Shown piece after piece: positions 15,790 to 61,539 of a stretch of DNA of 64,000 nucleotides (its first letter is position 1; each line of letters starts with the position of its first letter). This DNA is from Eledone cirrhosa (taxonomy: Eukaryota): positions 30,070,001 through 30,134,000 of the forward strand of contig OZ024752.1 in NCBI GenBank assembly GCA_964016885.1, read 5' to 3'. Made by a program: the position numbers and the translations under genes. The notes beneath the pieces are model-generated. The model saw only the letters and a list, made by a program, of their open reading frames with translations, made no database searches and was not told the DNA's origin.

Positions 15790-16045
15790 CGTTTCTGAAT
15801 TTGTTTAGCAAGATTCTTTATCTGAAAACATGTGTTGAAAACGATATTGTTATACTTTGGGAGGGTCATGTTGCCAATAAGAAACACACGCACCAGTTGT
15901 TTCACTTCAATTTATTATAATAAATTTATAAATTTAGGAATTTATAAATTTCCGGTTGGTTGGTTGGTTCCACAACCAGATGGTTGTTTATATATTGTCA
16001 AAGTTCTTTCGTTACACATTCTGTGACCTCTTCAGTGACTGGGGA
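15790..16045 (-). mobile_element. Penelope-like pLTR fragment with hammerhead
   Basis: Shares TTGTTATACTT.GGGAGGGTCAT and the HHR motif with the 38110-38390 and 61540-61777 regions. Confidence 0.6.
15997..16039 (-). ncRNA. Minimal type I hammerhead ribozyme
   Basis: GTCA-CTGAAGA-G-GTCACA gaatg TGTAAC-GAAA-GAAC-TT-TGAC; stem I is GTCA/TGAC. Confidence 0.65.
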
Positions 16046-18243: not shown

Positions 18244-18279
18244 TCTTCTGATGAAGGACTATCGTCTGAAACATTAAGA
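18244..18279 (+). ncRNA. Minimal hammerhead ribozyme (slightly decayed)
   Basis: TCTT-CTGATGA-A-GGAC tatc GTCT-GAAA-CA-TT-AAGA; paralogue at 27765. Confidence 0.55.
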
Positions 18280-23482: not shown

Positions 23483-24627
23483 ATACATGTAAAAACACAC
23501 ATAGATAATATAGATGTATAAACATACATGTAAAAACACATATACATAATATAGATGTATAAACATACATGTAAACACATATATATAGTATAATGTATAT
23601 GTATAAACATATATGTATAAACATGGAGGCACATGGCTTAGTGGTTAGAGCATTGGGCTTGCAATCGAAAGGTTGTGAGTTCAATTCTCAGACCGGGTGA
23701 TGTGTTGTTTCCTTGAGCAAGACACTTTATTTCACATTGCTCCAGTTTACTCAGCTGTAGAAATGAGATGATAGGGACTGGGGTCCATATCATTCCACTG
23801 CAAAGTGGTCGTGGAGGGGCCACGGCAAAAAAGTACCCAGCACTCACTGTAAATGAGGTTGGTGTTAGGAAGGGCATCCAGCTGTAGAAATCAGGCCAGA
23901 ATCAGTTCCCGTCCCACCCTTGCAAGCAGGGAAAAAAGCGGACGTAAAATGATGATGATCATGATGATGATACATGTATAAACATACATGTAAACACATA
24001 TACATAGTATAATGTATAAACATACATGTAAACACATATATATAGTATAATGTATAAACATACATGTAAACACATACATAGTATAGATGTATAAACATAC
24101 ATGTAAACACATATACATAGTATAATGTATAAACATACATGTAAACACATATACATAGTATAGATGTATAAACATACATGTAAACACACATAACAATAGT
24201 ATAGATGTATAAACATACATGTAAACACACATACATAGTATAGATGTATAAACATACATGTAAACACACATAACAATAGTATAGATGTATAAACATACAT
24301 GTAAACACACATACATAGTATAGATGTATAAACATACATGTAAACACACATAACAATAGTATAGATGTATAAACATACATGTAAACACACATACATAGTA
24401 TAGATGTATAAACATACATGTAAACACACATATATAGTATAATGTATAAACATACATGTAAACACATATACATAATATAGATGTATAAACATACATGTAA
24501 ACACATATACATAGTATAGATGTATAAACATACATGTAAACACACATACATAATATACATAATATAGATGTATAAACATACATGTAAACACATATACATA
24601 ATATAGATGTATAAACATACATGTAAA

Positions 24628-37332: not shown

Positions 37333-37925
37333 ATGGCTTAGTGGTTAGAGCATTGGCCTTGCAATCGAAAGGTTGTGAGTTCAATTCTCAGACCAGGTGA
37401 TGTGGTGTTTCCATGGAGGCACATGGCTTAGTGCTTAGAGCATTGGCCTTGCAATCGAAAGGTTGTGAATTCAATTCTCAGACCAGGTGATGTGGTGTTT
37501 CCATGGAGGCACATGGCTTAGTGCTTAGAGCATTGGCCTTGCAATTGAAAGGTTGTGAGTTCAATTCTCAGACCAGGTGATGTGGTGTTTCCATGGAGGC
37601 ACATGGCTTAGTGCTTAGAGCATTGGCCTTGCAATCGAAAGGTTGTGAGTTCAATTCTCAGACCGGGTGATGTGTTGTTTCCTTGAGCAAGACACTTTAT
37701 TTCACATTGCTCCAGTTTACTCAGCTGTAGAAATGAGATGATAGGGACTGGGGTCCATATCATTCCACTGCAAAGTGGTCATGGAGGTGCCACAGCAAAA
37801 AAGCACCCAGCACTCACTGTAAATGAGGTTGGTGTTAGGAAGGGCATCCAGCTGTAGAAATCAAGCCAGAATCAGTTCCCGTCCCACCCTTGCAAGCAGG
37901 GAAAAAGCGGACGTAAAATGAAATG
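37333..37925 (+). mobile_element. CORE-type SINE family 1 with four tandem 90-bp tRNA-like heads
   Basis: ATGGCTTAGTG starts at 37333, 37423, 37513 and 37603; only the last continues into body and tail. Confidence 0.85.
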
Positions 37926-40922: not shown

Positions 40923-41475
40923 GTAAGTATGCATGTATGTATACGTACATACATATATATATATATACAGACGTACAGTAGTATGTATATATATACATAC
41001 ATGCACACATATATATATGTATGTATCGGTTTATCGTTTTCGGTGCGCCCAATCGACTAAACTCACTCGATATGCAAATTAGGCTGCTCAGCCGTTAATA
41101 TGCATAAGGAAAGTATATACTTTCAGACGTTCAACCATCTGGCAGGAAGGTATACGATGCTGACGATAGCTAATAAGCTTGAAACTAGTACATCGTTCCT
41201 GTGTCAGTGTTGAACAAAAAGGTGACATGGTTGCCTAAACACTGTACGGCGTAATTCGGGCTGTTTGTTTGTTTACAAACAAACAAAGCGAGCATTATAA
41301 TAAATGTTCGGTAAACCGATACGTGCATATATATATGTGTGCATGTATGTATATATATACATACTACTGTACATCTGTATACATATATGTATGTACGTAT
41401 ACATACATGCATATTACATTTAAGTAACTGCCGTACTAAGAGTGAGAAATGAAATTTCGTTTCATTCTATTCTAT
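40923..41475 (+). mobile_element. Diverged single retrozyme-like monomer with inverted partial copy at its 5' side
   Basis: 41030-41475 aligns to the 466-bp unit. 40923-41036 is the reverse complement of 41309-41417. HHR at 41154-41196. Confidence 0.8.
41154..41196 (+). ncRNA. Type I hammerhead ribozyme (diverged copy)
   Basis: ACGATG-CTGACGA-T-AGCT aata AGCT-T-GAAA-CTAG-TA-CATCGT. Confidence 0.85.
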
Positions 41476-41511
41476 ATATATTCTATTCTATATATATACA
41501 TATATATATAC

Positions 41512-41574
<63 letters not shown>

Positions 41575-41583
41575 CATATATAT

Positions 41584-42408
41584 ATAAATTGAAACAAAAT
41601 GAAAACGAAATTTCATTTCTCACTCTTAGTATGGCACTTACTTAAATGTAAGTATGCATGTATACGTACATACATATATGTATACAGACGTACAGTAGCA
41701 TGCACATATATATATATATATATACATATATACATACATATGCATACAGGTACACATACATATATGCACGTATCAGTTTAGCGGCGCTAACGTCGCTTTG
41801 TTCGTTTGTAAACAAACTGAACAGCCTGAATTTATGCCATACGGTATTAAGGCAACCACGTCACCTTTTTGTTCAACACTGACACAGGAACGATGTACTA
41901 GTTTCAAGCTTGTTAGCTATCATCAGCACCGTTTACCCATCTGCCAGATAGTTGAACGTTCGAAAGTATATACTTTCCTTATGAAAATTAACGGCTGAGC
42001 AGCCTAATTTGCATATTGAGTGAGTTAAATCGGTCAGGCATACCGAAAACGATAAATTGAAACAAAATGAAAACGAAATTTCATTTCTCACTCTTAGTAT
42101 GGCACTTACTTAAATGTAAGTATGCATGTATACGTACATACATATATGTATACAGACGTACAGTAGCATGCACATATATATATATATATATACATATATA
42201 CATACATATGCATACAGGTACACATACATATATGCACGTATCAGTTTAGCGGCGCTAACGTCGCTTTGTTCGTTTGTAAACAAACTGAACAGCCTGAATT
42301 TATGCCATACGGTATTAAGGCAACCACGTCACCTTTTTGTTCAACACTGACACAGGAACGATGTACTAGTTTCAAGCTTGTTAGCTATCATCAGCACCGT
42401 TTACCCAT
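41584..42408 (-). repeat. Inverted ~1.8 units of the 466-bp hammerhead repeat (HHRs at 41891-41931 and 42359-42399)
   Basis: Reverse complement of array units; junction microhomology CAT at 42406-42408. Confidence 0.92.
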
Positions 42409-42507
42409 TTAAGTAAGTGCCATACTAAGAGTGAGAAATGAAATTTCGTTTTCATTTTGTTTCAATTTATCGTTTTCGGTATGCCTGACCGATTTAACTC
42501 ACTCAAT

Positions 42508-42515
42508 ATGCAAAT
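42508..42515 (+). promoter_or_regulatory. Octamer motif ATGCAAAT (one per unit; also 41072-41079)
   Basis: Perfect octamer about 110 nt upstream of the HHR cleavage site, retained in the diverged copy. Function is inferred only. Confidence 0.4.
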
Positions 42516-42588
42516 TAGGCTGCTCAGCCGTTAATTTTCATAAGGAAAGTATATACTTTCGAACGTTCAACTATCTGGCAGATGGGTA

Positions 42589-42633
42589 AACGGTGCTGAT
42601 GATAGCTAACAAGCTTGAAACTAGTACATCGTT
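42589..42633 (+). ncRNA. Type I minimal hammerhead ribozyme (first of 24; last at about 53315-53359)
   Basis: AACGGTG-CTGATGA-T-AGCT aaca AGCT-T-GAAA-CTAG-TA-CATCGTT. Stem I is 7 bp with one G.U. Predicted cleavage after GUA at 42626. Confidence 0.88.
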
Positions 42634-45600
42634 CCTGTGTCAGTGTTGAACAAAAAGGTGACGTGGTTGCCTTAATACCGTATGGCATAAATTCAGGCTG
42701 TTCAGTTTGTTTACAAACGAACAAAGCGACGTTAGCGCCGCTAAACTGATACGTGCATATATGTATGTGTACCTGTATGCATATGTATGTATATATGTAT
42801 ATATATATATATATGTGCATGCTACTGTACGTCTGTATACATATATGTATGTACGTATACATGCATACTTACATTTAAGTAAGTGCCATACTAAGAGTGA
42901 GAAATGAAATTTCGTTTTCATTTTGTTTCAATTTATCGTTTTCGGTATGCCTGACCGATTTAACTCACTCAATATGCAAATTAGGCTGCTCAGCCGTTAA
43001 TTTTCATAAGGAAAGTATATACTTTCGAACGTTCAACTATCTGGCAGATGGGTAAACGGTGCTGATGATAGCTAACAAGCTTGAAACTAGTACATCGTTC
43101 CTGTGTCAGTGTTGAACAAAAAGGTGACGTGGTTGCCTTAATACCGTATGGCATAAATTCAGGCTGTTCAGTTTGTTTACAAACGAACAAAGCGACGTTA
43201 GCGCCGCTAAACTGATACGTGCATATATGTATGTGTACCTGTATGCATATGTATGTATATATGTATATATATATATATATATGTGCATGCTACTGTACGT
43301 CTGTATACATATATTTATGTACGTATACATGCATACTTACATTTAAGTAAGTGCCATACTAAGAGTGAGAAATGAAATTTCGTTTTCATTTTGTTTCAAT
43401 TTATCGTTTTCGGTATGCCTGACCGATTTAACTCACTCAATATGCAAATTAGGCTGCTCAGCCGTTAATTTTCATAAGGAAAGTATATACTTTCGAACGT
43501 TCAACTATCTGGCAGATGGGTAAACGGTGCTGATGATAGCTAACAAGCTTGAAACTAGTACATCGTTCCTGTGTCAGTGTTGAACAAAAAGGTGACGTGG
43601 TTGCCTTAATACCGTATGGCATAAATTCAGGCTGTTCAGTTTGTTTACAAACGAACAAAGCGACGTTAGCGCCGCTAAACTGATACGTGCATATATGTAT
43701 GTGTACCTGTATGCATATGTATGTATATATGTATATATATATATATATGTGCATGCTACTGTACGTCTGTATACATATATGTATGTACGTATACATGCAT
43801 ACTTACATTTAAGTAAGTGCCATACTAAGAGTGAGAAATGAAATTTCGTTTTCATTTTGTTTCAATTTATCGTTTTCGGTATGCCTGACCGATTTAACTC
43901 ACTCAATATGCAAATTAGGCTGCTCAGCCGTTAATTTTCATAAGGAAAGTATATACTTTCGAACGTTCAACTATCTGGCAGATGGGTAAACGGTGCTGAT
44001 GATAGCTAACAAGCTTGAAACTAGTACATCGTTCCTGTGTCAGTGTTGAACAAAAAGGTGACGTGGTTGCCTTAATACCGTATGGCATAAATTCAGGCTG
44101 TTCAGTTTGTTTACAAACGAACAAAGCGACGTTAGCGCCGCTAAACTGATACGTGCATATATGTATGTGTACCTGTATGCATATGTATGTATATATATAT
44201 ATATATATGTGCATGCTACTGTACGTCTGTATACATATATGTATGTACGTATACATGCATACTTACATTTAAGTAAGTGCCATACTAAGAGTGAGAAATG
44301 AAATTTCGTTTTCATTTTGTTTCAATTTATCGTTTTCGGTATGCCTGACCGATTTAACTCACTCAATATGCAAATTAGGCTGCTCAGCCGTTAATTTTCA
44401 TAAGGAAAGTATATACTTTCGAACGTTCAACTATCTGGCAGATGGGTAAACGGTGCTGATGATAGCTAACAAGCTTGAAACTAGTACATCGTTCCTGTGT
44501 CAGTGTTGAACAAAAAGGTGACGTGGTTGCCTTAATACCGTATGGCATAAATTCAGGCTGTTCAGTTTGTTTACAAACGAACAAAGCGACGTTAGCGCCG
44601 CTAAACTGATACGTGCATATATGTATGTGTACCTGTATGCATATGTATGTATATATGTATATATATATATATATGTGCATGCTACTGTACGTCTGTATAC
44701 ATATATGTATGTACGTATACATGCATACTTACATTTAAGTAAGTGCCATACTAAGAGTGAGAAATGAAATTTCGTTTTCATTTTGTTTCAATTTATCGTT
44801 TTCGGTATGCCTGACCGATTTAACTCACTCAATATGCAAATTAGGCTGCTCAGCCGTTAATTTTCATAAGGAAAGTATATACTTTCGAACGTTCAACTAT
44901 CTGGCAGATGGGTAAACGGTGCTGATGATAGCTAACAAGCTTGAAACTAGTACATCGTTCCTGTGTCAGTGTTGAACAAAAAGGTGACGTGGTTGCCTTA
45001 ATACCGTATGGCATAAATTCAGGCTGTTCAGTTTGTTTACAAACGAACAAAGCGACGTTAGCGCCGCTAAACTGATACGTGCATATATGTATGTGTACCT
45101 GTATGCATATGTATGTATATATGTATATATATATATATATATGTGCATGCTACTGTACGTCTGTATACATATATGTATGTACGTATACATGCATACTTAC
45201 ATTTAAGTAAGTGCCATACTAAGAGTGAGAAATGAAATTTCGTTTTCATTTTGTTTCAATTTATCGTTTTCGGTATGCCTGACCGATTTAACTCACTCAA
45301 TATGCAAATTAGGCTGCTCAGCCGTTAATTTTCATAAGGAAAGTATATACTTTCGAACGTTCAACTATCTGGCAGATGGGTAAACGGTGCTGATGATAGC
45401 TAACAAGCTTGAAACTAGTACATCGTTCCTGTGTCAGTGTTGAACAAAAAGGTGACGTGGTTGCCTTAATACCGTATGGCATAAATTCAGGCTGTTCAGT
45501 TTGTTTACAAACGAACAAAGCGACGTTAGCGCCGCTAAACTGATACGTGCATATATGTATGTGTACCTGTATGCATATGTATGTATATATGTATATATAT

Positions 45601-48600
45601 ATATATATGTGCATGCTACTGTACGTCTGTATACATATATGTATGTACGTATACATGCATACTTACATTTAAGTAAGTGCCATACTAAGAGTGAGAAATG
45701 AAATTTCGTTTTCATTTTGTTTCAATTTATCGTTTTCGGTATGCCTGACCGATTTAACTCACTCAATATGCAAATTAGGCTGCTCAGCCGTTAATTTTCA
45801 TAAGGAAAGTATATACTTTCGAACGTTCAACTATCTGGCAGATGGGTAAACGGTGCTGATGATAGCTAACAAGCTTGAAACTAGTACATCGTTCCTGTGT
45901 CAGTGTTGAACAAAAAGGTGACGTGGTTGCCTTAATACCGTATGGCATAAATTCAGGCTGTTCAGTTTGTTTACAAACGAACAAAGCGACGTTAGCGCCG
46001 CTAAACTGATACGTGCATATATGTATGTGTACCTGTATGCATATGTATGTATATATGTATATATATATATATATGTGCATGCTACTGTACGTCTGTATAC
46101 ATATATGTATGTACGTATACATGCATACTTACATTTAAGTAAGTGCCATACTAAGAGTGAGAAATGAAATTTCGTTTTCATTTTGTTTCAATTTATCGTT
46201 TTCGGTATGCCTGACCGATTTAACTCACTCAATATGCAAATTAGGCTGCTCAGCCGTTAATTTTCATAAGGAAAGTATATACTTTCGAACGTTCAACTAT
46301 CTGGCAGATGGGTAAACGGTGCTGATGATAGCTAACAAGCTTGAAACTAGTACATCGTTCCTGTGTCAGTGTTGAACAAAAAGGTGACGTGGTTGCCTTA
46401 ATACCGTATGGCATAAATTCAGGCTGTTCAGTTTGTTTACAAACGAACAAAGCGACGTTAGCGCCGCTAAACTGATACGTGCATATATGTATGTGTACCT
46501 GTATGCATATGTATGTATATATGTATATATATATATATATATGTGCATGCTACTGTACGTCTGTATACATATATGTATGTACGTATACATGCATACTTAC
46601 ATTTAAGTAAGTGCCATACTAAGAGTGAGAAATGAAATTTCGTTTTCATTTTGTTTCAATTTATCGTTTTCGGTATGCCTGACCGATTTAACTCACTCAA
46701 TATGCAAATTAGGCTGCTCAGCCGTTAATTTTCATAAGGAAAGTATATACTTTCGAACGTTCAACTATCTGGCAGATGGGTAAACGGTGCTGATGATAGC
46801 TAACAAGCTTGAAACTAGTACATCGTTCCTGTGTCAGTGTTGAACAAAAAGGTGACGTGGTTGCCTTAATACCGTATGGCATAAATTCAGGCTGTTCAGT
46901 TTGTTTACAAACGAACAAAGCGACGTTAGCGCCGCTAAACTGATACGTGCATATATGTATGTGTACCTGTATGCATATGTATGTATATATGTATATATAT
47001 ATATATATATATGTGCATGCTACTGTACGTCTGTATACATATATGTATGTACGTATACATGCATACTTACATTTAAGTAAGTGCCATACTAAGAGTGAGA
47101 AATGAAATTTCGTTTTCATTTTGTTTCAATTTATCGTTTTCGGTATGCCTGACCGATTTAACTCACTCAATATGCAAATTAGGCTGCTCAGCCGTTAATT
47201 TTCATAAGGAAAGTATATACTTTCGAACGTTCAACTATCTGGCAGATGGGTAAACGGTGCTGATGATAGCTAACAAGCTTGAAACTAGTACATCGTTCCT
47301 GTGTCAGTGTTGAACAAAAAGGTGACGTGGTTGCCTTAATACCGTATGGCATAAATTCAGGCTGTTCAGTTTGTTTACAAACGAACAAAGCGACGTTAGC
47401 GCCGCTAAACTGATACGTGCATATATGTATGTGTACCTGTATGCATATGTATGTATATATGTATATATATATATATATGTGCATGCTACTGTACGTCTGT
47501 ATACATATATGTATGTACGTATACATGCATACTTACATTTAAGTAAGTGCCATACTAAGAGTGAGAAATGAAATTTCGTTTTCATTTTGTTTCAATTTAT
47601 CGTTTTCGGTATGCCTGACCGATTTAACTCACTCAATATGCAAATTAGGCTGCTCAGCCGTTAATTTTCATAAGGAAAGTATATACTTTCGAACGTTCAA
47701 CTATCTGGCAGATGGGTAAACGGTGCTGATGATAGCTAACAAGCTTGAAACTAGTACATCGTTCCTGTGTCAGTGTTGAACAAAAAGGTGACGTGGTTGC
47801 CTTAATACCGTATGGCATAAATTCAGGCTGTTCAGTTTGTTTACAAACGAACAAAGCGACGTTAGCGCCGCTAAACTGATACGTGCATATATGTATGTGT
47901 ACCTGTATGCATATGTATGTATATATGTATATATATATATATATATGTGCATGCTACTGTACGTCTGTATACATATATGTATGTACGTATACATGCATAC
48001 TTACATTTAAGTAAGTGCCATACTAAGAGTGAGAAATGAAATTTCGTTTTCATTTTGTTTCAATTTATCGTTTTCGGTATGCCTGACCGATTTAACTCAC
48101 TCAATATGCAAATTAGGCTGCTCAGCCGTTAATTTTCATAAGGAAAGTATATACTTTCGAACGTTCAACTATCTGGCAGATGGGTAAACGGTGCTGATGA
48201 TAGCTAACAAGCTTGAAACTAGTACATCGTTCCTGTGTCAGTGTTGAACAAAAAGGTGACGTGGTTGCCTTAATACCGTATGGCATAAATTCAGGCTGTT
48301 CAGTTTGTTTACAAACGAACAAAGCGACGTTAGCGCCGCTAAACTGATACGTGCATATATGTATGTGTACCTGTATGCATATGTATGTATATATGTATAT
48401 ATATATATATATGTGCATGCTACTGTACGTCTGTATACATATATGTATGTACGTATACATGCATACTTACATTTAAGTAAGTGCCATACTAAGAGTGAGA
48501 AATGAAATTTCGTTTTCATTTTGTTTCAATTTATCGTTTTCGGTATGCCTGACCGATTTAACTCACTCAATATGCAAATTAGGCTGCTCAGCCGTTAATT

Positions 48601-51600
48601 TTCATAAGGAAAGTATATACTTTCGAACGTTCAACTATCTGGCAGATGGGTAAACGGTGCTGATGATAGCTAACAAGCTTGAAACTAGTACATCGTTCCT
48701 GTGTCAGTGTTGAACAAAAAGGTGACGTGGTTGCCTTAATACCGTATGGCATAAATTCAGGCTGTTCAGTTTGTTTACAAACGAACAAAGCGACGTTAGC
48801 GCCGCTAAACTGATACGTGCATATATGTATGTGTACCTGTATGCATATGTATGTATATATGTATATATATATATATATGTGCATGCTACTGTACGTCTGT
48901 ATACATATATGTATGTACGTATACATGCATACTTACATTTAAGTAAGTGCCATACTAAGAGTGAGAAATGAAATTTCGTTTTCATTTTGTTTCAATTTAT
49001 CGTTTTCGGTATGCCTGACCGATTTAACTCACTCAATATGCAAATTAGGCTGCTCAGCCGTTAATTTTCATAAGGAAAGTATATACTTTCGAACGTTCAA
49101 CTATCTGGCAGATGGGTAAACGGTGCTGATGATAGCTAACAAGCTTGAAACTAGTACATCGTTCCTGTGTCAGTGTTGAACAAAAAGGTGACGTGGTTGC
49201 CTTAATACCGTATGGCATAAATTCAGGCTGTTCAGTTTGTTTACAAACGAACAAAGCGACGTTAGCGCCGCTAAACTGATACGTGCATATATGTATGTGT
49301 ACCTGTATGCATATGTATGTATATATGTATATATATATATATATGTGCATGCTACTGTACGTCTGTATACATATATGTATGTACGTATACATGCATACTT
49401 ACATTTAAGTAAGTGCCATACTAAGAGTGAGAAATGAAATTTCGTTTTCATTTTGTTTCAATTTATCGTTTTCGGTATGCCTGACCGATTTAACTCACTC
49501 AATATGCAAATTAGGCTGCTCAGCCGTTAATTTTCATAAGGAAAGTATATACTTTCGAACGTTCAACTATCTGGCAGATGGGTAAACGGTGCTGATGATA
49601 GCTAACAAGCTTGAAACTAGTACATCGTTCCTGTGTCAGTGTTGAACAAAAAGGTGACGTGGTTGCCTTAATACCGTATGGCATAAATTCAGGCTGTTCA
49701 GTTTGTTTACAAACGAACAAAGCGACGTTAGCGCCGCTAAACTGATACGTGCATATATGTATGTGTACCTGTATGCATATGTATGTATATATGTATATAT
49801 ATATATATGTGCATGCTACTGTACGTCTGTATACATATATGTATGTACGTATACATGCATACTTACATTTAAGTAAGTGCCATACTAAGAGTGAGAAATG
49901 AAATTTCGTTTTCATTTTGTTTCAATTTATCGTTTTCGGTATGCCTGACCGATTTAACTCACTCAATATGCAAATTAGGCTGCTCAGCCGTTAATTTTCA
50001 TAAGGAAAGTATATACTTTCGAACGTTCAACTATCTGGCAGATGGGTAAACGGTGCTGATGATAGCTAACAAGCTTGAAACTAGTACATCGTTCCTGTGT
50101 CAGTGTTGAACAAAAAGGTGACGTGGTTGCCTTAATACCGTATGGCATAAATTCAGGCTGTTCAGTTTGTTTACAAACGAACAAAGCGACGTTAGCGCCG
50201 CTAAACTGATACGTGCATATATGTATGTGTACCTGTATGCATATGTATGTATATATGTATATATATATATATATGTGCATGCTACTGTACGTCTGTATAC
50301 ATATATGTATGTACGTATACATGCATACTTACATTTAAGTAAGTGCCATACTAAGAGTGAGAAATGAAATTTCGTTTTCATTTTGTTTCAATTTATCGTT
50401 TTCGGTATGCCTGACCGATTTAACTCACTCAATATGCAAATTAGGCTGCTCAGCCGTTAATTTTCATAAGGAAAGTATATACTTTCGAACGTTCAACTAT
50501 CTGGCAGATGGGTAAACGGTGCTGATGATAGCTAACAAGCTTGAAACTAGTACATCGTTCCTGTGTCAGTGTTGAACAAAAAGGTGACGTGGTTGCCTTA
50601 ATACCGTATGGCATAAATTCAGGCTGTTCAGTTTGTTTACAAACGAACAAAGCGACGTTAGCGCCGCTAAACTGATACGTGCATATATGTATGTGTACCT
50701 GTATGCATATGTATGTATATATGTATATATATATATATATGTGCATGCTACTGTACGTCTGTATACATATATGTATGTACGTATACATGCATACTTACAT
50801 TTAAGTAAGTGCCATACTAAGAGTGAGAAATGAAATTTCGTTTTCATTTTGTTTCAATTTATCGTTTTCGGTATGCCTGACCGATTTAACTCACTCAATA
50901 TGCAAATTAGGCTGCTCAGCCGTTAATTTTCATAAGGAAAGTATATACTTTCGAACGTTCAACTATCTGGCAGATGGGTAAACGGTGCTGATGATAGCTA
51001 ACAAGCTTGAAACTAGTACATCGTTCCTGTGTCAGTGTTGAACAAAAAGGTGACGTGGTTGCCTTAATACCGTATGGCATAAATTCAGGCTGTTCAGTTT
51101 GTTTACAAACGAACAAAGCGACGTTAGCGCCGCTAAACTGATACGTGCATATATGTATGTGTACCTGTATGCATATGTATGTATATATGTATATATATAT
51201 ATATATATGTGCATGCTACTGTACGTCTGTATACATATATGTATGTACGTATACATGCATACTTACATTTAAGTAAGTGCCATACTAAGAGTGAGAAATG
51301 AAATTTCGTTTTCATTTTGTTTCAATTTATCGTTTTCGGTATGCCTGACCGATTTAACTCACTCAATATGCAAATTAGGCTGCTCAGCCGTTAATTTTCA
51401 TAAGGAAAGTATATACTTTCGAACGTTCAACTATCTGGCAGATGGGTAAACGGTGCTGATGATAGCTAACAAGCTTGAAACTAGTACATCGTTCCTGTGT
51501 CAGTGTTGAACAAAAAGGTGACGTGGTTGCCTTAATACCGTATGGCATAAATTCAGGCTGTTCAGTTTGTTTACAAACGAACAAAGCGACGTTAGCGCCG

Positions 51601-53599
51601 CTAAACTGATACGTGCATATATGTATGTGTACCTGTATGCATATGTATGTATATATGTATATATATATATATATGTGCATGCTACTGTACGTCTGTATAC
51701 ATATATGTATGTACGTATACATGCATACTTACATTTAAGTAAGTGCCATACTAAGAGTGAGAAATGAAATTTCGTTTTCATTTTGTTTCAATTTATCGTT
51801 TTCGGTATGCCTGACCGATTTAACTCACTCAATATGCAAATTAGGCTGCTCAGCCGTTAATTTTCATAAGGAAAGTATATACTTTCGAACGTTCAACTAT
51901 CTGGCAGATGGGTAAACGGTGCTGATGATAGCTAACAAGCTTGAAACTAGTACATCGTTCCTGTGTCAGTGTTGAACAAAAAGGTGACGTGGTTGCCTTA
52001 ATACCGTATGGCATAAATTCAGGCTGTTCAGTTTGTTTACAAACGAACAAAGCGACGTTAGCGCCGCTAAACTGATACGTGCATATATGTATGTGTACCT
52101 GTATGCATATGTATGTATATATGTATATATATATATATATGTGCATGCTACTGTACGTCTGTATACATATATGTATGTACGTATACATGCATACTTACAT
52201 TTAAGTAAGTGCCATAATAAGAGTGAGAAATGAAATTTCGTTTTCATTTTGTTTCAATTTATCGTTTTCGGTATGCCTGACCGATTTAACTCACTCAATA
52301 TGCAAATTAGGCTGCTCAGCCGTTAATTTTCATAAGGAAAGTATATACTTTCGAACGTTCAACTATCTGGCAGATGGGTAAACGGTGCTGATGATAGCTA
52401 ACAAGCTTGAAACTAGTACATCGTTCCTGTGTCAGTGTTGAACAAAAAGGTGACGTGGTTGCCTTAATACCGTATGGCATAAATTCAGGCTGTTCAGTTT
52501 GTTTACAAACGAACAAAGCGACGTTAGCGCCGCTAAACTGATACGTGCATATATGTATGTGTACCTGTATGCATATGTATGTATATATGTATATATATAT
52601 ATATATATGTGCATGCTACTGTACGTCTGTATACATATATGTATGTACGTATACATGCATACTTACATTTAAGTAAGTGCCATACTAAGAGTGAGAAATG
52701 AAATTTCGTTTTCATTTTGTTTCAATTTATCGTTTTCGGTATGCCTGACCGATTTAACTCACTCAATATGCAAATTAGGCTGCTCAGCCGTTAATTTTCA
52801 TAAGGAAAGTATATACTTTCGAACGTTCAACTATCTGGCAGATGGGTAAACGGTGCTGATGATAGCTAACAAGCTTGAAACTAGTACATCGTTCCTGTGT
52901 CAGTGTTGAACAAAAAGGTGACGTGGTTGCCTTAATACCGTATGGCATAAATTCAGGCTGTTCAGTTTGTTTACAAACGAACAAAGCGACGTTAGCGCCG
53001 CTAAACTGATACGTGCATATATGTATGTGTACCTGTATGCATATGTATGTATATATGTATATATATATATATATGTGCATGCTACTGTACGTCTGTATAC
53101 ATATATGTATGTACGTATACATGCATACTTACATTTAAGTAAGTGCCATACTAAGAGTGAGAAATGAAATTTCGTTTTCATTTTGTTTCAATTTATCGTT
53201 TTCGGTATGCCTGACCGATTTAACTCACTCAATATGCAAATTAGGCTGCTCAGCCGTTAATTTTCATAAGGAAAGTATATACTTTCGAACGTTCAACTAT
53301 CTGGCAGATGGGTAAACGGTGCTGATGATAGCTAACAAGCTTGAAACTAGTACATCGTTCCTGTGTCAGTGTTGAACAAAAAAGGTGACGTGGTTGCCTT
53401 AATACCGTATGGCATAAATTCAGGCTGTTCAGTTTGTTTACAAACGAACAAAGCGACGTTAGCGCCGCTAAACTGATACGTGCATATATGTATGTGTACC
53501 TGTATGCATATGTATGTATATATGTATATATATATATATATGTGCATGCTACTGTACGTCTGTATACATATATGTATGTACGTATACATGCATACTTAC

Positions 53600-53790
<191 letters not shown>

Positions 53791-56214: not shown

Positions 56215-58341
56215 CATCATCATCATCATCATCATCATCAACGTTTAACGTCCGTGTTCCACGCTTGCATGGGTTTGGACGGGGGTAGTCCCACTTGAGG
56301 CAAGAGTGATTGTCTTGCTCGCATAGGACTGTCTGGCAGGTTTTCTACAGTTGGATGCCCTTCCTAACACCAACCACATTTACAGTGTGGGTCTGGGAGG
56401 TTTTTACCGTGTTGCCTACACGGCCACATTACAGCGTGGACTGTGTGTTTTTTGTCGTGACACCTACACGATCTCATTTGTTTCGGCCTGGATGGCGCGG
56501 CACCAACATAACTTTACATAGAACGGGGTGCTGTGGATGGGGTGGGGGTGGTGGTGGTGGGACGGGGTGTATTTTGTTAGAGATGCCTACTGGCTGTAGT
56601 AGGTTTTACGATGTATTTAGGTAAGGCGGGTCTTCTCTGTTACTGAGTACCGCCAAACGTCTTGGTCCAGTGACATTGTCTTGGAGAGGTGTAAGTGTGT
56701 GAGGTCGGAGTTTATCAGCTCGTCCCAGGTTTTTCTAGGTCTGCCTATTCCGTGGCTACCGTCTATCTTTATTGCCCTGCACTTTGTTATACAGCTATCA
56801 ACTTTCATGCGCATCACGTGTCCATACCAACGTAGCCTTCTCTCGAGTAAACAACATCTGATCCCTCTTATTTCTAATTTTTTCCTTAGTTCGTTTATGC
56901 TTTGCCGTTCACGTATATTACTGTTACACATCCAGCGGAGCATGCAAGCTTCCTTCCTCTCTAGTCTGCGTATATCCTCTGCACACAATGCCCAGGTCTC
57001 ACTCCCATGCAACATTGCTGTTCGTATGCAGGCATCGTACAACCTGCCTTTCATTTTTAGGGAGAACCCTTTAGCAGCTAATAGTGGTATAAGCTCTCTG
57101 AACTTTTTCCAACCAGTTCTGACTCTAGCTACTGTACTTTCAGAGCACCCTCCCCCACTGCTGATTTTGTCGCCCAGGTAACGGAAGCTGTCCACTATTT
57201 CTATAGAACCCTCTGCGCAATTGAAAGAGCTAGTATTTTGTGGGCACTTGCTGCTACTTATTGCACCAGAGCACCGGCCACATGTAAAATCTATGTTCTT
57301 AGTTAGCTTACCTGTGATCCCACTACATCTTTTATTCACCCATACTTTGCATTTAGGACATAAAATGGAGTTTCTACCTACGCCTTTCCTACACACCGAG
57401 CACGACCATTTCCCAGAAGGGACCGCCGCCTTGTTTTCTTTCCTACAAACTAGTACTTTGGTCTTAGCCAGGTTAATTTTAAGTCCTTTTGACTCTAGGC
57501 CGTGCTTCCATGTTTGGAATTTCTTCTCTAGCTCAGCCATTGATTCCGCTATGAGTGTCAGGTCGTCTGCGTATAGGAGTTCCCATGGGCAGCCAGTCTT
57601 GAACTCCTCTGTTATAGCCTGAAGGGCAATAATAAATAGTAGGGGGCTGAGAACAGAGCCCTGATGGACGCCAACTTTTACGCTAAACTCTTCACTATAT
57701 TCGTTGTTAATTCTAACCTTGCTGACTGTTTCTTTATACATGGCTTGTATAGCTCTCACAAGCCATTCGTCAACACCTAGTTTTCTAAGAGCCCACCAGA
57801 TAATGGAATGGGGGACTCTGTCAAAGGCTTTCTCCAAGTCGACAAAAGCTAAGTAGAGGGGTTTACCTTTAGCTAGGTACTTCTCCTGTAGTTGTCGTAC
57901 AATGAAAAGAGCGTCTGTGGTACTTTTGCCTGACACAAACCCGAACTGCATTTCATCTAGGTCTATTCTCTCTCTGATTAGTTGCGCTATTACTTTTTCC
58001 GTGACCTTCATGACCTGGTCGATTAATTTAATGCCTCTATAGTTACTCCTATCTAGGGCATCTCCTTTACCCTTATAACAGTTAACGATGATGCTGCTAT
58101 GCCAGTCCTTCGGAACAACCGCTTTCTGTACGACTTGGTTAACTATGCGGGTGACCATGGTGTGTCCCACTGTGTCAGATGCCTTCAGCATCTCGGCAAC
58201 TATTTCCGAAGGCCCAGCCGCCTTACCCGTCTTCATATCCTTGATTGCCTTACTTATTTTACTCCCCTCGACTAACACTGCTGGTCCCTCTATTGGGTCG
58301 ATGTGGGGTAGACTGTCTTTCTCCCATTTATTCTCCTCATA
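56215..58341 (-). mobile_element. 5'-truncated RTE-clade LINE with 3' UTR and (GAT)n tail
   Basis: RT ORF followed by a 400-bp UTR ending in (CAT)n on the plus strand. The 5' end abuts a CA/TA microsatellite. No APE domain is present. Confidence 0.9.
56617..58341 (-). CDS. Non-LTR (RTE) reverse transcriptase, N-terminally truncated, with Cys-rich PHD-like insertion
   Basis: About 575 open codons with KAAGP, NYRGIKL, QFGF, FVDLEKAFD, GVHQGSVLSP, YADD, FRYLG, RRLRWYGHV and GRPRKTW. The ORF's first ~57 aa are microsatellite. Confidence 0.9.
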   Translation of the reverse strand, partial: YEENKWEKDSLPHIDPIEGPAVLVEGSKISKAIKDMKTGKAAGPSEIVAEMLKASDTVGHTMVTRIVNQVVQKAVVPKDWHSSIIVNCYKGKGDALDRSNYRGIKLIDQVMKVTEKVIAQLIRERIDLDEMQFGFVSGKSTTDALFIVRQLQEKYLAKGKPLYLAFVDLEKAFDRVPHSIIWWALRKLGVDEWLVRAIQAMYKETVSKVRINNEYSEEFSVKVGVHQGSVLSPLLFIIALQAITEEFKTGCPWELLYADDLTLIAESMAELEKKFQTWKHGLESKGLKINLAKTKVLVCRKENKAAVPSGKWSCSVCRKGVGRNSILCPKCKVWVNKRCSGITGKLTKNIDFTCGRCSGAISSSKCPQNTSSFNCAEGSIEIVDSFRYLGDKISSGGGCSESTVARVRTGWKKFRELIPLLAAKGFSLKMKGRLYDACIRTAMLHGSETWALCAEDIRRLERKEACMLRWMCNSNIRERQSINELRKKLEIRGIRCCLLERRLRWYGHVMRMKVDSCITKCRAIKIDGSHGIGRPRKTWDELINSDLTHLHLSKTMSLDQDVWRYSVTEKTRLT

Positions 58342-59139
58342 ACATAAAAATAAATACATACACACACACACACATACAAACACATACACACACATATACA
58401 TACACACACACACACACACATATACATATATACATATATATACACACACACATACATACAAATACATACACACACATGTATGTGTGTAAAACTCATTCTT
58501 AGATGTATTCATTTGAACCTTGTTTAACTCTTAAATTATATATAAACATACACACATATATATATACATATATATATATACATATATATGCAAAAGTTCT
58601 ATTTAAATTGTTGGGATACAACAAGCAAATATTTTTATAACTGGTATAAAGCACTCGACAAGTATTTGGAGTAAATATACGATATTAACAAATGGAAACT
58701 ATATTTATAAAACCATATCTATTTTATTATACATATTTCAAGGATACAATGTTAAATTATGGTATGCTTTCATCAGACAAAATACAATATATACCAGTTT
58801 TATAAATAAATATTGACATACCCTTTCAAGATGCAACCGTTACTTTTGGAAGACATCAGGGATAGTGGATTTGTTTACTTATATTAGTAAGTCGTTGTGT
58901 TACGGAGAAGGAAAAAGACGGAGAGAGAGAGAGAAAAGCGGAGAGAGAGAAAAGGGAGAAATAAAGAAAGAAAAAGTAAAAGAGAAAAACGAGAGAGAGA
59001 TATCAAAACACCAGACAGAGAGAAAAAAACCGATAATAATATAAAAACTAACCATAATAATAACAATTGTAACTATGGTAACAATTTTAACAACTATAAT
59101 AGAAAACCTTACAATAATTCCGAAAGCCGAAAAATAAAT

Positions 59140-59822
59140 AGAACTAGGAACATAGTATGGTTCGCTCCTCCTTTCTCACTAAATATTAAAACCCCTATTG
59201 CTAAACTATTCTTTAAAGCTCTTGACAAACGCTTCCCTAGAACACAGATATTACTCAATTTTTAATAGACATACTATAAAATTAACTTACTCTTCCACCA
59301 AAAATTTAGCGCAAAATATTAATAGAATTAATAATAGAAATTTAAAACTTAACCAAAATACCAATAATAACCCAAGCAATATTCAATCGAATAATTGTAA
59401 CTGTAGAAATAAATCCAACTGTCCGTTAAATAACAATTGCTTAGCTCAAAATGTAGTTTATAATTGTAATGTAAAAACTAATTTAAATTCATTTAATTAT
59501 GTCGGATCTACCCCCACAGAGTTTAAATCCCGCTTCAATAATCATAAAAATTCTTTTACAGATCCAAACAAAAAATCTTCAACTTCGCTATCTAGCCTAT
59601 TATGGGACCTAAAACGAGAATATTGAATATTCGCTGATTTGGAATATTATTTCAAAAGCTACTCCTTTTAATTCTTCTTCAGAAAATTGCGATCTTTGTA
59701 TAGAGGAAATATTCTTTATATTAAAGACCAAAAATTCCCTGAATTTAAGGAATAATTTATTCAGTTGCTGCAGACATAGATTGAACTCAACGTTTAAATA
59801 TAAATATAAATTTAAAATGTAG
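59140..59822 (+). pseudogene. PLE thumb/GIY-YIG endonuclease fragment (frameshifted)
   Basis: RNIVWFAPPFS, IFNRHTIKLTYSS, CNCRNKSNCPLNNNC, VVY..YVGST..FKSRFNNHKNSF, CDLCIEE..LNLRNNLFSCCRHR. Confidence 0.85.
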
Positions 59823-61236
59823 TATATAATTAATTAAGTAATTTGGTTAATATATGAAACCTGTCGATAAATCATTAGATTCCTTCATCTTTTTCATTTT
59901 CTTTGATTAAGTACTCAAGTATAAATAAATTTTCCTCCTAAATATAAATATAAATATAATAAACTATTCTAGAGAAATATATTGAGAGCTCTTGAAAGGA
60001 GAAAATATTTCCTATTTCTTATTTTTTATATTTTTTATATTTTATTTATTTTTTATTATGTTTGCTTTTATTCTGATATTTTTATTCTGATAGCTTCTCA
60101 CAATTTTCGAAAGTTTATCCTTTCAATATCTTGAGTAAAATATACGTAAGATAAATTTCTATACTAAATCTATTAAACATATTATTTTAACTTAAAATAT
60201 TTTAATATTTTAGAATTCTTTTGTTTTTAAAATTATATTGATATAATTATATTTCCAAAATATAATCCTTTTGTATTTTAGGTACTCAATTATAATGTAC
60301 TATAGTGATGTATACTTATCTCTATACGTGTATGTATGTATATGTGGATATTAACATACATATACATGTTATTATATGCATTTTTATGAATATATGTCTG
60401 TCTGTATATATGCATGCGTGACGCGTGTCTACCAATTGGCTGAGGATGCACACACATGTTTATATATGTATATGTAAGAATTGTGTGTGTACATGTGTAC
60501 CCATACAATTTGATTGCAGATAGACATAATTAACAGCCATAAATGCATGACAGCTAATCCTATGTATTTATATATATGTATTAATTTTGTTTATTTAATA
60601 ACACAAAGGATGTATAACATTAATAAAAAAAAATCATTTATGTTTTGTATGTATATATTATATACGGGGGTAGATATGATGTGTACTTTGTGAGTGTGCG
60701 TATATATATTTTTATGTGTATTTTTTGCGTGTGTGTACGTGGTATATAATATGTAATTTCTCTAGCAATATATAGATTTCTTAATGTTTAAATTCCAATT
60801 TTTAATATATTGATCTCAATTTTTAAACTAAATATCTAATCATAGTTAAACAATGATTAATTTCTCATATTATATATGTACATTCCATTCATGAATATAA
60901 ATATTTCTAATTTTATTTATTCATTTCATCTTAATTGTTAACTTAACTTAATATGACATGACTTAAGGTTTTCGTTCTCTCCCCCTCTCTCTATCTCTAT
61001 ATTTCTCTCTCTCAGTTTTTTCTCTCTGTCTGGTGGTTTGATATCTCTCTCTCGTTTTTCTCTTTTTCTTTCTTTATTTCTCCCTTTTCTCTCTCTCTCC
61101 GTCTTTTTCCTTCTCCGTAACACAACGACTTACTAATATAAGTAAACAAATCCACTATCCCTGATGTCTTCCAAAAGTAACGGTTGCATCTTGAAAGGGT
61201 ATGTCAATATTTATTTATAAAACTGGTATATATTGT

Positions 61237-61299
61237 ATTTTGTCTGATGAAAGCATACCATAATTTAATATGGTATCCTTGAAATATGTATAATAAAAT
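61237..61299 (+). ncRNA. Type I hammerhead in PLE pLTR (inverted copy at 58721-58783)
   Basis: ATTTTGT-CTGATGA-AAGcATACCATA attta a TATGGTATcCTT-GAAA-TATGTA-TA-ATAAAAT. Confidence 0.7.
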
Positions 61300-61539
61300 A
61301 GATATGGTTTTATAAATATAGTTTCCATTTGTTAATATCGTATATACATATATATATATACATACACACACACACATATATATAAGAAAATACATAAATA
61401 TTATATATATATAAAAATAAAAAGTTGGGAATACGACAAATAATAAATAAATAAATAATTAGAAAAGGGTATAAATGTTTATAGCTGATTTAGAGCACTC
61501 AACAAGTTCCTAAATACACATATATATATATATATAGTT

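Follow-up and report, generated by a model that had tools for sequence, protein, structure and literature searches.

A young hammerhead repeat unit in Eledone cirrhosa, from a family likely copied in trans by a Penelope-like element and probably shaped by selection on RNA folding

Two insertions in one TA-rich tract

The window analysed here is a stretch of 64,000 nucleotides from the cephalopod Eledone cirrhosa (assembly GCA_964016885.1, contig OZ024752.1, positions 30,070,001 to 30,134,000), whose 3.0 Gb genome carries many AT microsatellites. Two insertions of one hammerhead repeat family lie on either side of a common TA-rich tract (Table 1), a diverged insertion with a single full unit of subfamily s12 and a long array of subfamily s1, and a motif search finds 27 hammerhead motifs in the two together. 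Each has one tailed and one tail-less outer end. In the diverged insertion it is the inverted arm that has the short 3' end without a tail, next to a TA run, and in the array it is the outer end of the tandem arm that lacks the tail and is followed by a TA run. The unit measures ~450 bases with a GC content of about 36% and has neither coding capacity nor an LTR layout; the only frames are stop-to-stop frames of at most 186 aa that run through microsatellite stretches.

Table 1. Parts of the two insertions, in window coordinates
Feature	Positions	Strand	Basis
Inverted, 5'-truncated arm of the diverged insertion	40923..41033	-	aligned to unit; end census
One full s12 unit, terminating at the tail-type 3' end	41030..41475	+	
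Octamer ATGCAAAT	41072..41079	+	5' strand of predicted hairpin
TATA-containing hairpin	41109..41124	+	predicted fold
Extended stem with the hammerhead at its tip	41129..41215	+	predicted fold
Type I hammerhead	41154..41196	+	motif and fold
Hairpin	41221..41235	+	predicted fold
UUUA-loop hairpin, two-sided change at two pairs	41262..41285	+	
Final core hairpin, two-sided change at three pairs	41286..41312	+	
Tail of ~60 nt spanning the two fixed 3' ends; hairpin at 41446-41463	41415..41475	+	
TA-rich tract, common target of both insertions	41476..41584	.	
Inverted arm of the array insertion, about 1.8 units, subfamily s1, outer end tailed	41585..42409	-	
24 near-identical 466-bp tandem units, subfamily s1	42406..53601	+	

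Some of the predicted helices vary within the family. The TATA-containing hairpin is partly deleted in subfamily s3 and has a longer hairpin in its place in the sister family described below. All three differences between consensuses in the hairpin at 41221..41235 preserve pairing on the + strand (judged by eye from the consensus rows), and the s12 window copy has a G.G mismatch at one of the two-sided-change pairs of the final core hairpin.

Size of the family and age of the unit

The family is dispersed genome-wide, from monomers to multimers. A 16-nt anchor placed outside the ribozyme has 32,848 exact matches in the genome (2 for the reversed control), putting the family at 32,848 copies at least, and the tail pattern has 32,012. 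The ribozyme signature of the s12 unit is matched exactly 3,010 times, that of the array type 10,652 times and a third stem I type 10,945 times. A profile search gave 253 matches in 99 merged loci. From these, 137 near-full-length units, a set from which all window units except two were excluded, cluster as five large groups, one small group that forms a bridge and ten scattered ones with 1-2 units each. Two rootings of the subfamily tree disagree, as longer terminal branches place the root among the scattered groups and the sister family as outgroup places it near s11, with support of 60-77 and a long branch. Units of different groups are mixed at 8 of the 81 loci with full units, so the pairing of subfamilies seen at the window locus is not rare.

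An earlier note on this DNA had described the unit as an older diverged monomer, which is not borne out. Between the unit and the consensus of its subfamily there are 4 differences in 296 sites, and the unit has 97-98% identity to 39 other places among the 40 scored of 1,613 candidates; by sequence, the s12 window monomer is an ordinary young dispersed copy of its subfamily. The note's suggestion of two subfamilies at one locus holds, in the form of two separate insertions (s12 and s1) in one TA tract. Its suggested difference in age between the subfamilies finds no support in the sampled divergence from the group consensus, which is 3.7% for s12 (n=19) and 3.2% for s1 (n=16; P=0.67), a comparison blurred by sub-lineages. 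At the locus itself, the diverged unit has ~88% identity to the adjacent array, and 285 nt of an array unit are matched at 100% on another contig; judged from that match, the array is probably the later arrival, and hence the more recent of the two window insertions.

The ribozyme and neighbouring hairpins

Stems I and II of the hammerhead measure 6 and 4 bp; stem III, of 2 bp, is part of a palindromic ACUAGU, and cleavage is predicted after the GUA at 41190. It is recognised by motif and fold, since an Rfam scan of the window at gathering thresholds returned only a tRNA-like match and no hammerhead. The earlier note correctly counted three differences from the array in these 43 nt. One turns a stem I G.U pair into A-U (41157), one changes U to C at position 7 (41164) and one lies in loop II (41174). 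Position 7 and the loop are sites at which hammerheads tolerate change, and the stem I pair singled out in the note occurs across the family as U.G, A-U and G.U. A fourth change, at 41153 just outside the ribozyme, abolishes the array's seventh stem I pair. The octamer of the unit is intact, again as claimed.

Taken alone, the window pair gives no significant excess of ribozyme conservation over the rest (3/43 vs 32/237 columns changed, P=0.32), and the probability of finding none of the 12 core sites changed is 0.20. Unit and array also share identical blocks of 30, 22 and 52 nt that lie wholly or partly outside the ribozyme. In the two directions of comparison, 4.9 vs 10.1 and 7.3 vs 12.6 expected base pairs are broken, both uncalibrated values.

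The other hairpins reported as retained fared less evenly. The 5' hairpin does fold in both copies (-2.7 vs -4.3 kcal/mol), but long-range pairing competes with it. Whole-core folds and the sister family favour the long-range pairing, RNAalifold keeps the local hairpin without any two-sided change, and the two letters special to the window copy occur in only 3/34 and 4/34 s12 units. On the 3' side, where one hairpin was thought to have replaced another, the array form drawn in the note has a loop of 1 nt and differs from the predicted fold, in which the array, paired in another register, forms a hairpin homologous to the diverged one.

Probable selection on the folded RNA of source copies

After insertion, the catalytic core mutates as freely as its surroundings. 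Private mutations at 69 loci fall on the 12 core sites and the flanks at equal rates (9/828 vs 176/14,276, P=0.87), with 5/384 vs 109/6,494 at the 32 loci that were found via the non-ribozyme anchor. Among six subfamily consensuses, counting substitutions only, the core varies less, with 0 variable sites out of 12 compared with 59 out of 221 elsewhere (P=0.04); 4 of the 43 ribozyme sites vary (P=0.018). The earlier note had proposed that equal mutation of core and flanks across the family would speak against structural selection, and the answer is therefore divided between the two levels. Common variants in four public sequencing runs, which are contigs of unrecorded kind covering 41030-41329 only and one of which, X1, may have served to build the assembly itself, occupy 31 positions, 0 in the core, and low-depth runs of organisms B and C contain only variant types already seen. 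Exact genome-wide counts of 128 for a mutant at one core site and 276 at one non-core site are not a clean comparison, because the latter includes propagated variants and sister-family matches.

Pairing was assessed by counting the ensemble base pairs broken by substitutions between consensuses and comparing them with random placement of the same changes. On the ribozyme strand 15.2 pairs are broken against 31.5±2.2 expected, and on the other strand 22.8 against 29.9±2.0 (P=0.0005), whereas private mutations break 104.3 against 105.3±5.3, a neutral value. As this statistic is biased under neutrality, it was calibrated by 40 neutral simulations, which give a broken/expected ratio of 0.84±0.06 (minimum 0.66) compared with 0.48 for the data and 0.51 when the ribozyme is left out. 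In 29 natural copies near the consensuses, 97.1% of cells are paired in a structure drawn from those same sequences, and 8 pairs show a two-sided change. Of 500 shuffles, 68 reach that number, and the shuffles also yield more further pair types than the natural copies do, so this covariation tool cannot decide the matter by itself. There are few compensatory events, and they were inherited along a single tree.

Since the consensuses keep their pairing and private mutations are neutral, selection appears to act on source RNAs across the whole fold and not on the window copy. The claim of selection on RNA structure thus stands at the level of the family, for source elements and the whole ~290-nt fold, of which the ribozyme is only a part, but it does not extend to the copy in the window. 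Differences between subfamilies likely reflect selection on the folded RNA of a few source copies; the inserted copies decay neutrally.

A sister family and the octamer

A pattern that excluded the main family led to a sister family with a 470-bp tandem unit (L292:1790-2259; G000:C1, about 163.576 Mb), which has 40 scored matches at 97-100% among 1,828 candidates. It is identical to the main family at 300 of 434 aligned sites (69%) and has the same predicted helix series in new sequence, together with the same two insertion ends. The core pattern is present in 23 of 25 sister loci and the octamer in 22 of 25, some of these loci overlapping, and 2 of 3 aligned copies have GUC in place of GUA at the cut site.

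In an alignment of 11 sequences, five two-sided changes fall in stems I and II and not one in the octamer helix, whose octamer strand is fixed while three partner sites vary. The octamer is unchanged across the subfamily consensuses and in the sister family. As a lead only, this constancy beside a varying partner strand suggests a function tied to the sequence itself, possibly as a promoter site in the DNA; private mutations in the octamer occur at the background rate. Newt satellite 2 has an octamer-containing promoter of the snRNA type.

Structure of the insertions

Insertions of the family consist of an inverted, 5'-truncated copy beside tandem copies. Their outer ends take one of two fixed positions, separated by about 60 nt, and a TA run follows 129 of 157 scored ends (67/79 tailed and 62/78 short). 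One scorable end per strand is available at 35 two-armed loci (the other 103 of 138 could not be scored in this way), and 33 of these 35 combine one tailed with one tail-less end.

The 5' ends of the arms are evenly spread, and arms run across the cut site. In a census of 167 ends, 4 lie within 9 nt of the predicted cut site, which is no enrichment, and 2 at the unit start; a 5'-end hot spot at either place, suggested by loci selected by BLAST, does not appear in this census. The even spread and the arms that run across the cut site make a linear self-cleaved monomer an unlikely template, and a circle or an uncut multimer both fit the arm pattern.

Individual loci add some detail. In L072-L077 and L082-L085, all units within one multi-unit insertion share variants absent from the other loci shown, as would follow from a single copied template. 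A single insertion at L002:1199-2245 mixes units with and without the same position 3 core change, so that its template or its later history was mixed. At the merged loci C1_5539158 and C6_69579926, the flanks past both TA runs are near-identical and inverted, as if the target region were itself an inverted repeat.

Penelope-like elements in the genome and window

A young Hydra-type PLE (Penelope-like element) family, found using the window fragment 59393-59626, is present in the genome with open frames of 743-816 residues, among them intact 743-aa ORFs with Hydra motifs (DKT, CxCX5C, CxxC, CxH and RWK-like). The ORF has no Pfam match and no solved relative. In the 4 ends scored, the elements terminate in TA in two forms about 90 nt apart. 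Comparison of the unit with 18 Hydra-type loci of one PLE family found no shared sequence (best E 0.1), and the family is therefore a candidate partner only.

The window itself contains a broken Hydra-type PLE at 58592-61355, in which an endonuclease fragment (59183-59626) lies between inverted repeats with one hammerhead-like motif each (58776 on the - strand and 61244 on the + strand); close relatives elsewhere have intact ORFs (48,042 candidates). Further hammerhead-like core motifs at 18248, 27769 and 63705 (+) and at 16035, 38385 and 61772 (-) apparently belong to other repeat families. A long open frame at 56617-58330 (-), of 637 aa stop to stop to 58530, has by eye the look of a LINE reverse transcriptase fragment. 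A tRNA-like 90-bp unit is present in 3.9 tandem copies at 37333-37682, with a related single tRNA-like match at 23634-23691, and these units are probably the head of a tRNA-derived SINE.

Origin of the unit

The reading that we regard as well supported is that the window unit is a young copy of a hammerhead repeat family, likely copied in trans by a PLE, and that the subfamily differences likely reflect selection on the RNA fold. A tandem source would be transcribed, and neighbouring hammerheads would pair via the palindromic stem III and excise monomers of ~450 nt, possibly circular, as suggested by work on other hammerheads (PMC7229834, PMC4209133). A PLE protein would then nick (TA)n and begin reverse transcription internally, at two sites separated by ~60 nt, as the two fixed ends suggest, and the outcome would be the observed pattern of a tandem arm and an inverted, 5'-truncated arm. 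Only RNAs keeping the fold and the catalytic core would found new subfamilies, a step with statistical support, and the copies, once inserted, would undergo the neutral decay seen in private mutations. The window copy has one hammerhead on its strand and would therefore release no monomer by itself. Several results weigh against this reading: the comparison with 18 Hydra-type loci gave no autonomous element that shares sequence with the unit, arm 5' ends show no enrichment at the predicted cut site, hammerhead mutants left insertion unchanged in the one PLE assayed in vitro (PMC11167929), and most Xenopus retrozyme dimers did not cut in vitro (bioRxiv 10.64898/2026.07.22.740005).

A competing account departs from this in the template step only, and has a substantial though minority chance of being right. 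The same non-autonomous PLE would use an uncut multimeric transcript, with no circle, and the hammerhead would be kept for RNA turnover, for late protein-assisted cutting or as a protein-binding shape. Arms that cross the cut site from evenly spread starts agree with such a template, but a circle fits them equally; unprocessed RNA is the main substrate in vitro (PMC11167929), but related animal retrozymes accumulate as circles (PMC7229834). The account sits less easily with the retention of 12/12 catalytic positions in the six consensuses and of the core pattern in nearly all sister loci (23/25), or with a palindromic stem III, also kept, that suits dimer cleavage.

A bolder proposal, tentative and on balance unlikely, is that the whole ~450-nt RNA is a viroid-like structured replicon under selection whose fold, and not its sequence, would be read by a Hydra-type PLE reverse transcriptase on a circle, the octamer being an internal DNA promoter by which each tandem would transcribe itself.

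The compensatory pattern might instead come from correction of hairpins at the DNA level, through template switching or conversion in quasi-palindromes, with no selection on RNA. Inverted repeats abound in the unit, and the opposite strand too keeps its pairing beyond the simple null (22.8 vs 29.9, P=0.0005), yet the effect is stronger on the strand where wobbles are G.U. Moreover, G.U pairs persist, G.G and U.U mismatch states occur between paired states, one two-sided change (helix 2) spans about 200 nt, unpaired catalytic bases are kept as well and private mutations show no such bias, all of which makes the correction account improbable. Least probable is the literal reading of the earlier note, an old array copy kept under selection at this locus: its ~88% identity to the adjacent array, its intact core and the probably more recent array, with a 100% match on another contig, can be cited for it, but the reading is refuted by the 39 matches at 97-98% identity elsewhere and the 4/296 sites of distance from the subfamily consensus, single copies mutate neutrally, and the insertion comes with an inverted arm and two ends of its own.

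Relation to known retrozymes and Penelope-like elements

The preferred reading, copying in trans by a PLE with selection on the RNA fold, places the family among elements already described. [quoted passage not shown] Metazoan non-LTR retrozymes have units of 150-450 bp, and PLEs are named for their mobilisation only as a strong candidate (Cervera and de la Pena 2020, PMC7229834). The family resembles them in its non-coding, low-GC tandems with one type I hammerhead per unit, from dimers to long multimers, in its predicted self-paired fold and in the presence of PLEs in the same genome, and its short stem III is akin to the dimer-dependent axolotl type. It differs in a unit of 430-500 nt, at or above the upper size limit, with an internal AT microsatellite-like stretch, and in its 5' inversion and one-sided tail in (TA)n; the word "inverted" is absent from the main text of PMC7229834. 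Xenopus retrozymes have been proposed to derive from PLEs as non-autonomous elements (Li, Clavereau and Pollet 2026, bioRxiv 10.64898/2026.07.22.740005), and likewise occur as hammerhead monomers, dimers and multimers with a proposed dependence on PLEs. That proposal is based on co-occurrence and pLTR homology, whereas the case made here is based on the insertion signature and the conservation of the fold, no homologous pLTR having been found. In vitro, 8/9 Xenopus retrozyme dimers showed no cleavage.

The pattern described for PLEs combines (TA)n targets with tails on one side and inverted copies truncated at the 5' end (PMC8557442; Craig et al. 2021), and the tail has been traced in vitro to two internal reverse-transcription starts in Poseidon PAc (PMC11167929; Frangieh et al. 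2024). Mutants of the hammerhead had no effect on insertion in the one PLE tested in vitro in the latter work. The family shares with EN+ PLEs, notably the Hydra clade and Poseidon PAc, partial tandems, an inverted 5'-truncated copy, a hammerhead in the repeat, a tail at a single end and (TA)n targets, but has no ORF and a tail of ~60 nt in contrast to the 30-40 bp described for PLEs; the Hydra-type family of this genome has a tail of ~90 nt. Non-autonomous PLEs with head-to-tail copies are noted in the text of those papers only for Chlamys (MRC1). The ribozyme agrees with canonical metazoan type I hammerheads (PMC4209133) in a 6-bp helix I, 4-bp helix II, 1-2-bp helix III with palindromic loop and an extra base between positions 9 and 10.1. 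Compensatory changes within a PLE hammerhead motif have already been reported (Cervera and de la Pena 2014, PMC4209133); those concern the ribozyme, whereas in the present family the remainder of the ~290-nt core keeps its pairing as well.

Literature searches found no paper on this hammerhead repeat family, and the main text of an octopus repeat annotation (PMC13282606) mentions neither hammerhead nor ribozyme, although its repeat libraries may hold the family unnamed. Neither conservation of a fold beyond the ribozyme nor a tail signature on a retrozyme appears in the text of the retrozyme and PLE papers compared, in which it is also left open what mobilises retrozymes in animals and for what reason a hammerhead persists in PLE-type repeats. 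The family bears on both questions, as it carries the PLE signature of tail and inversion directly and as the whole fold of its source RNA appears to be selected while inserted copies are neutral. If the replicon proposal were true, two families at 69% identity would form a natural structure-function series for the mobilisation of animal retrozymes. Very young copies, a distant sister family and candidate partner ORFs that are intact all occur in one genome, and the model is therefore testable.
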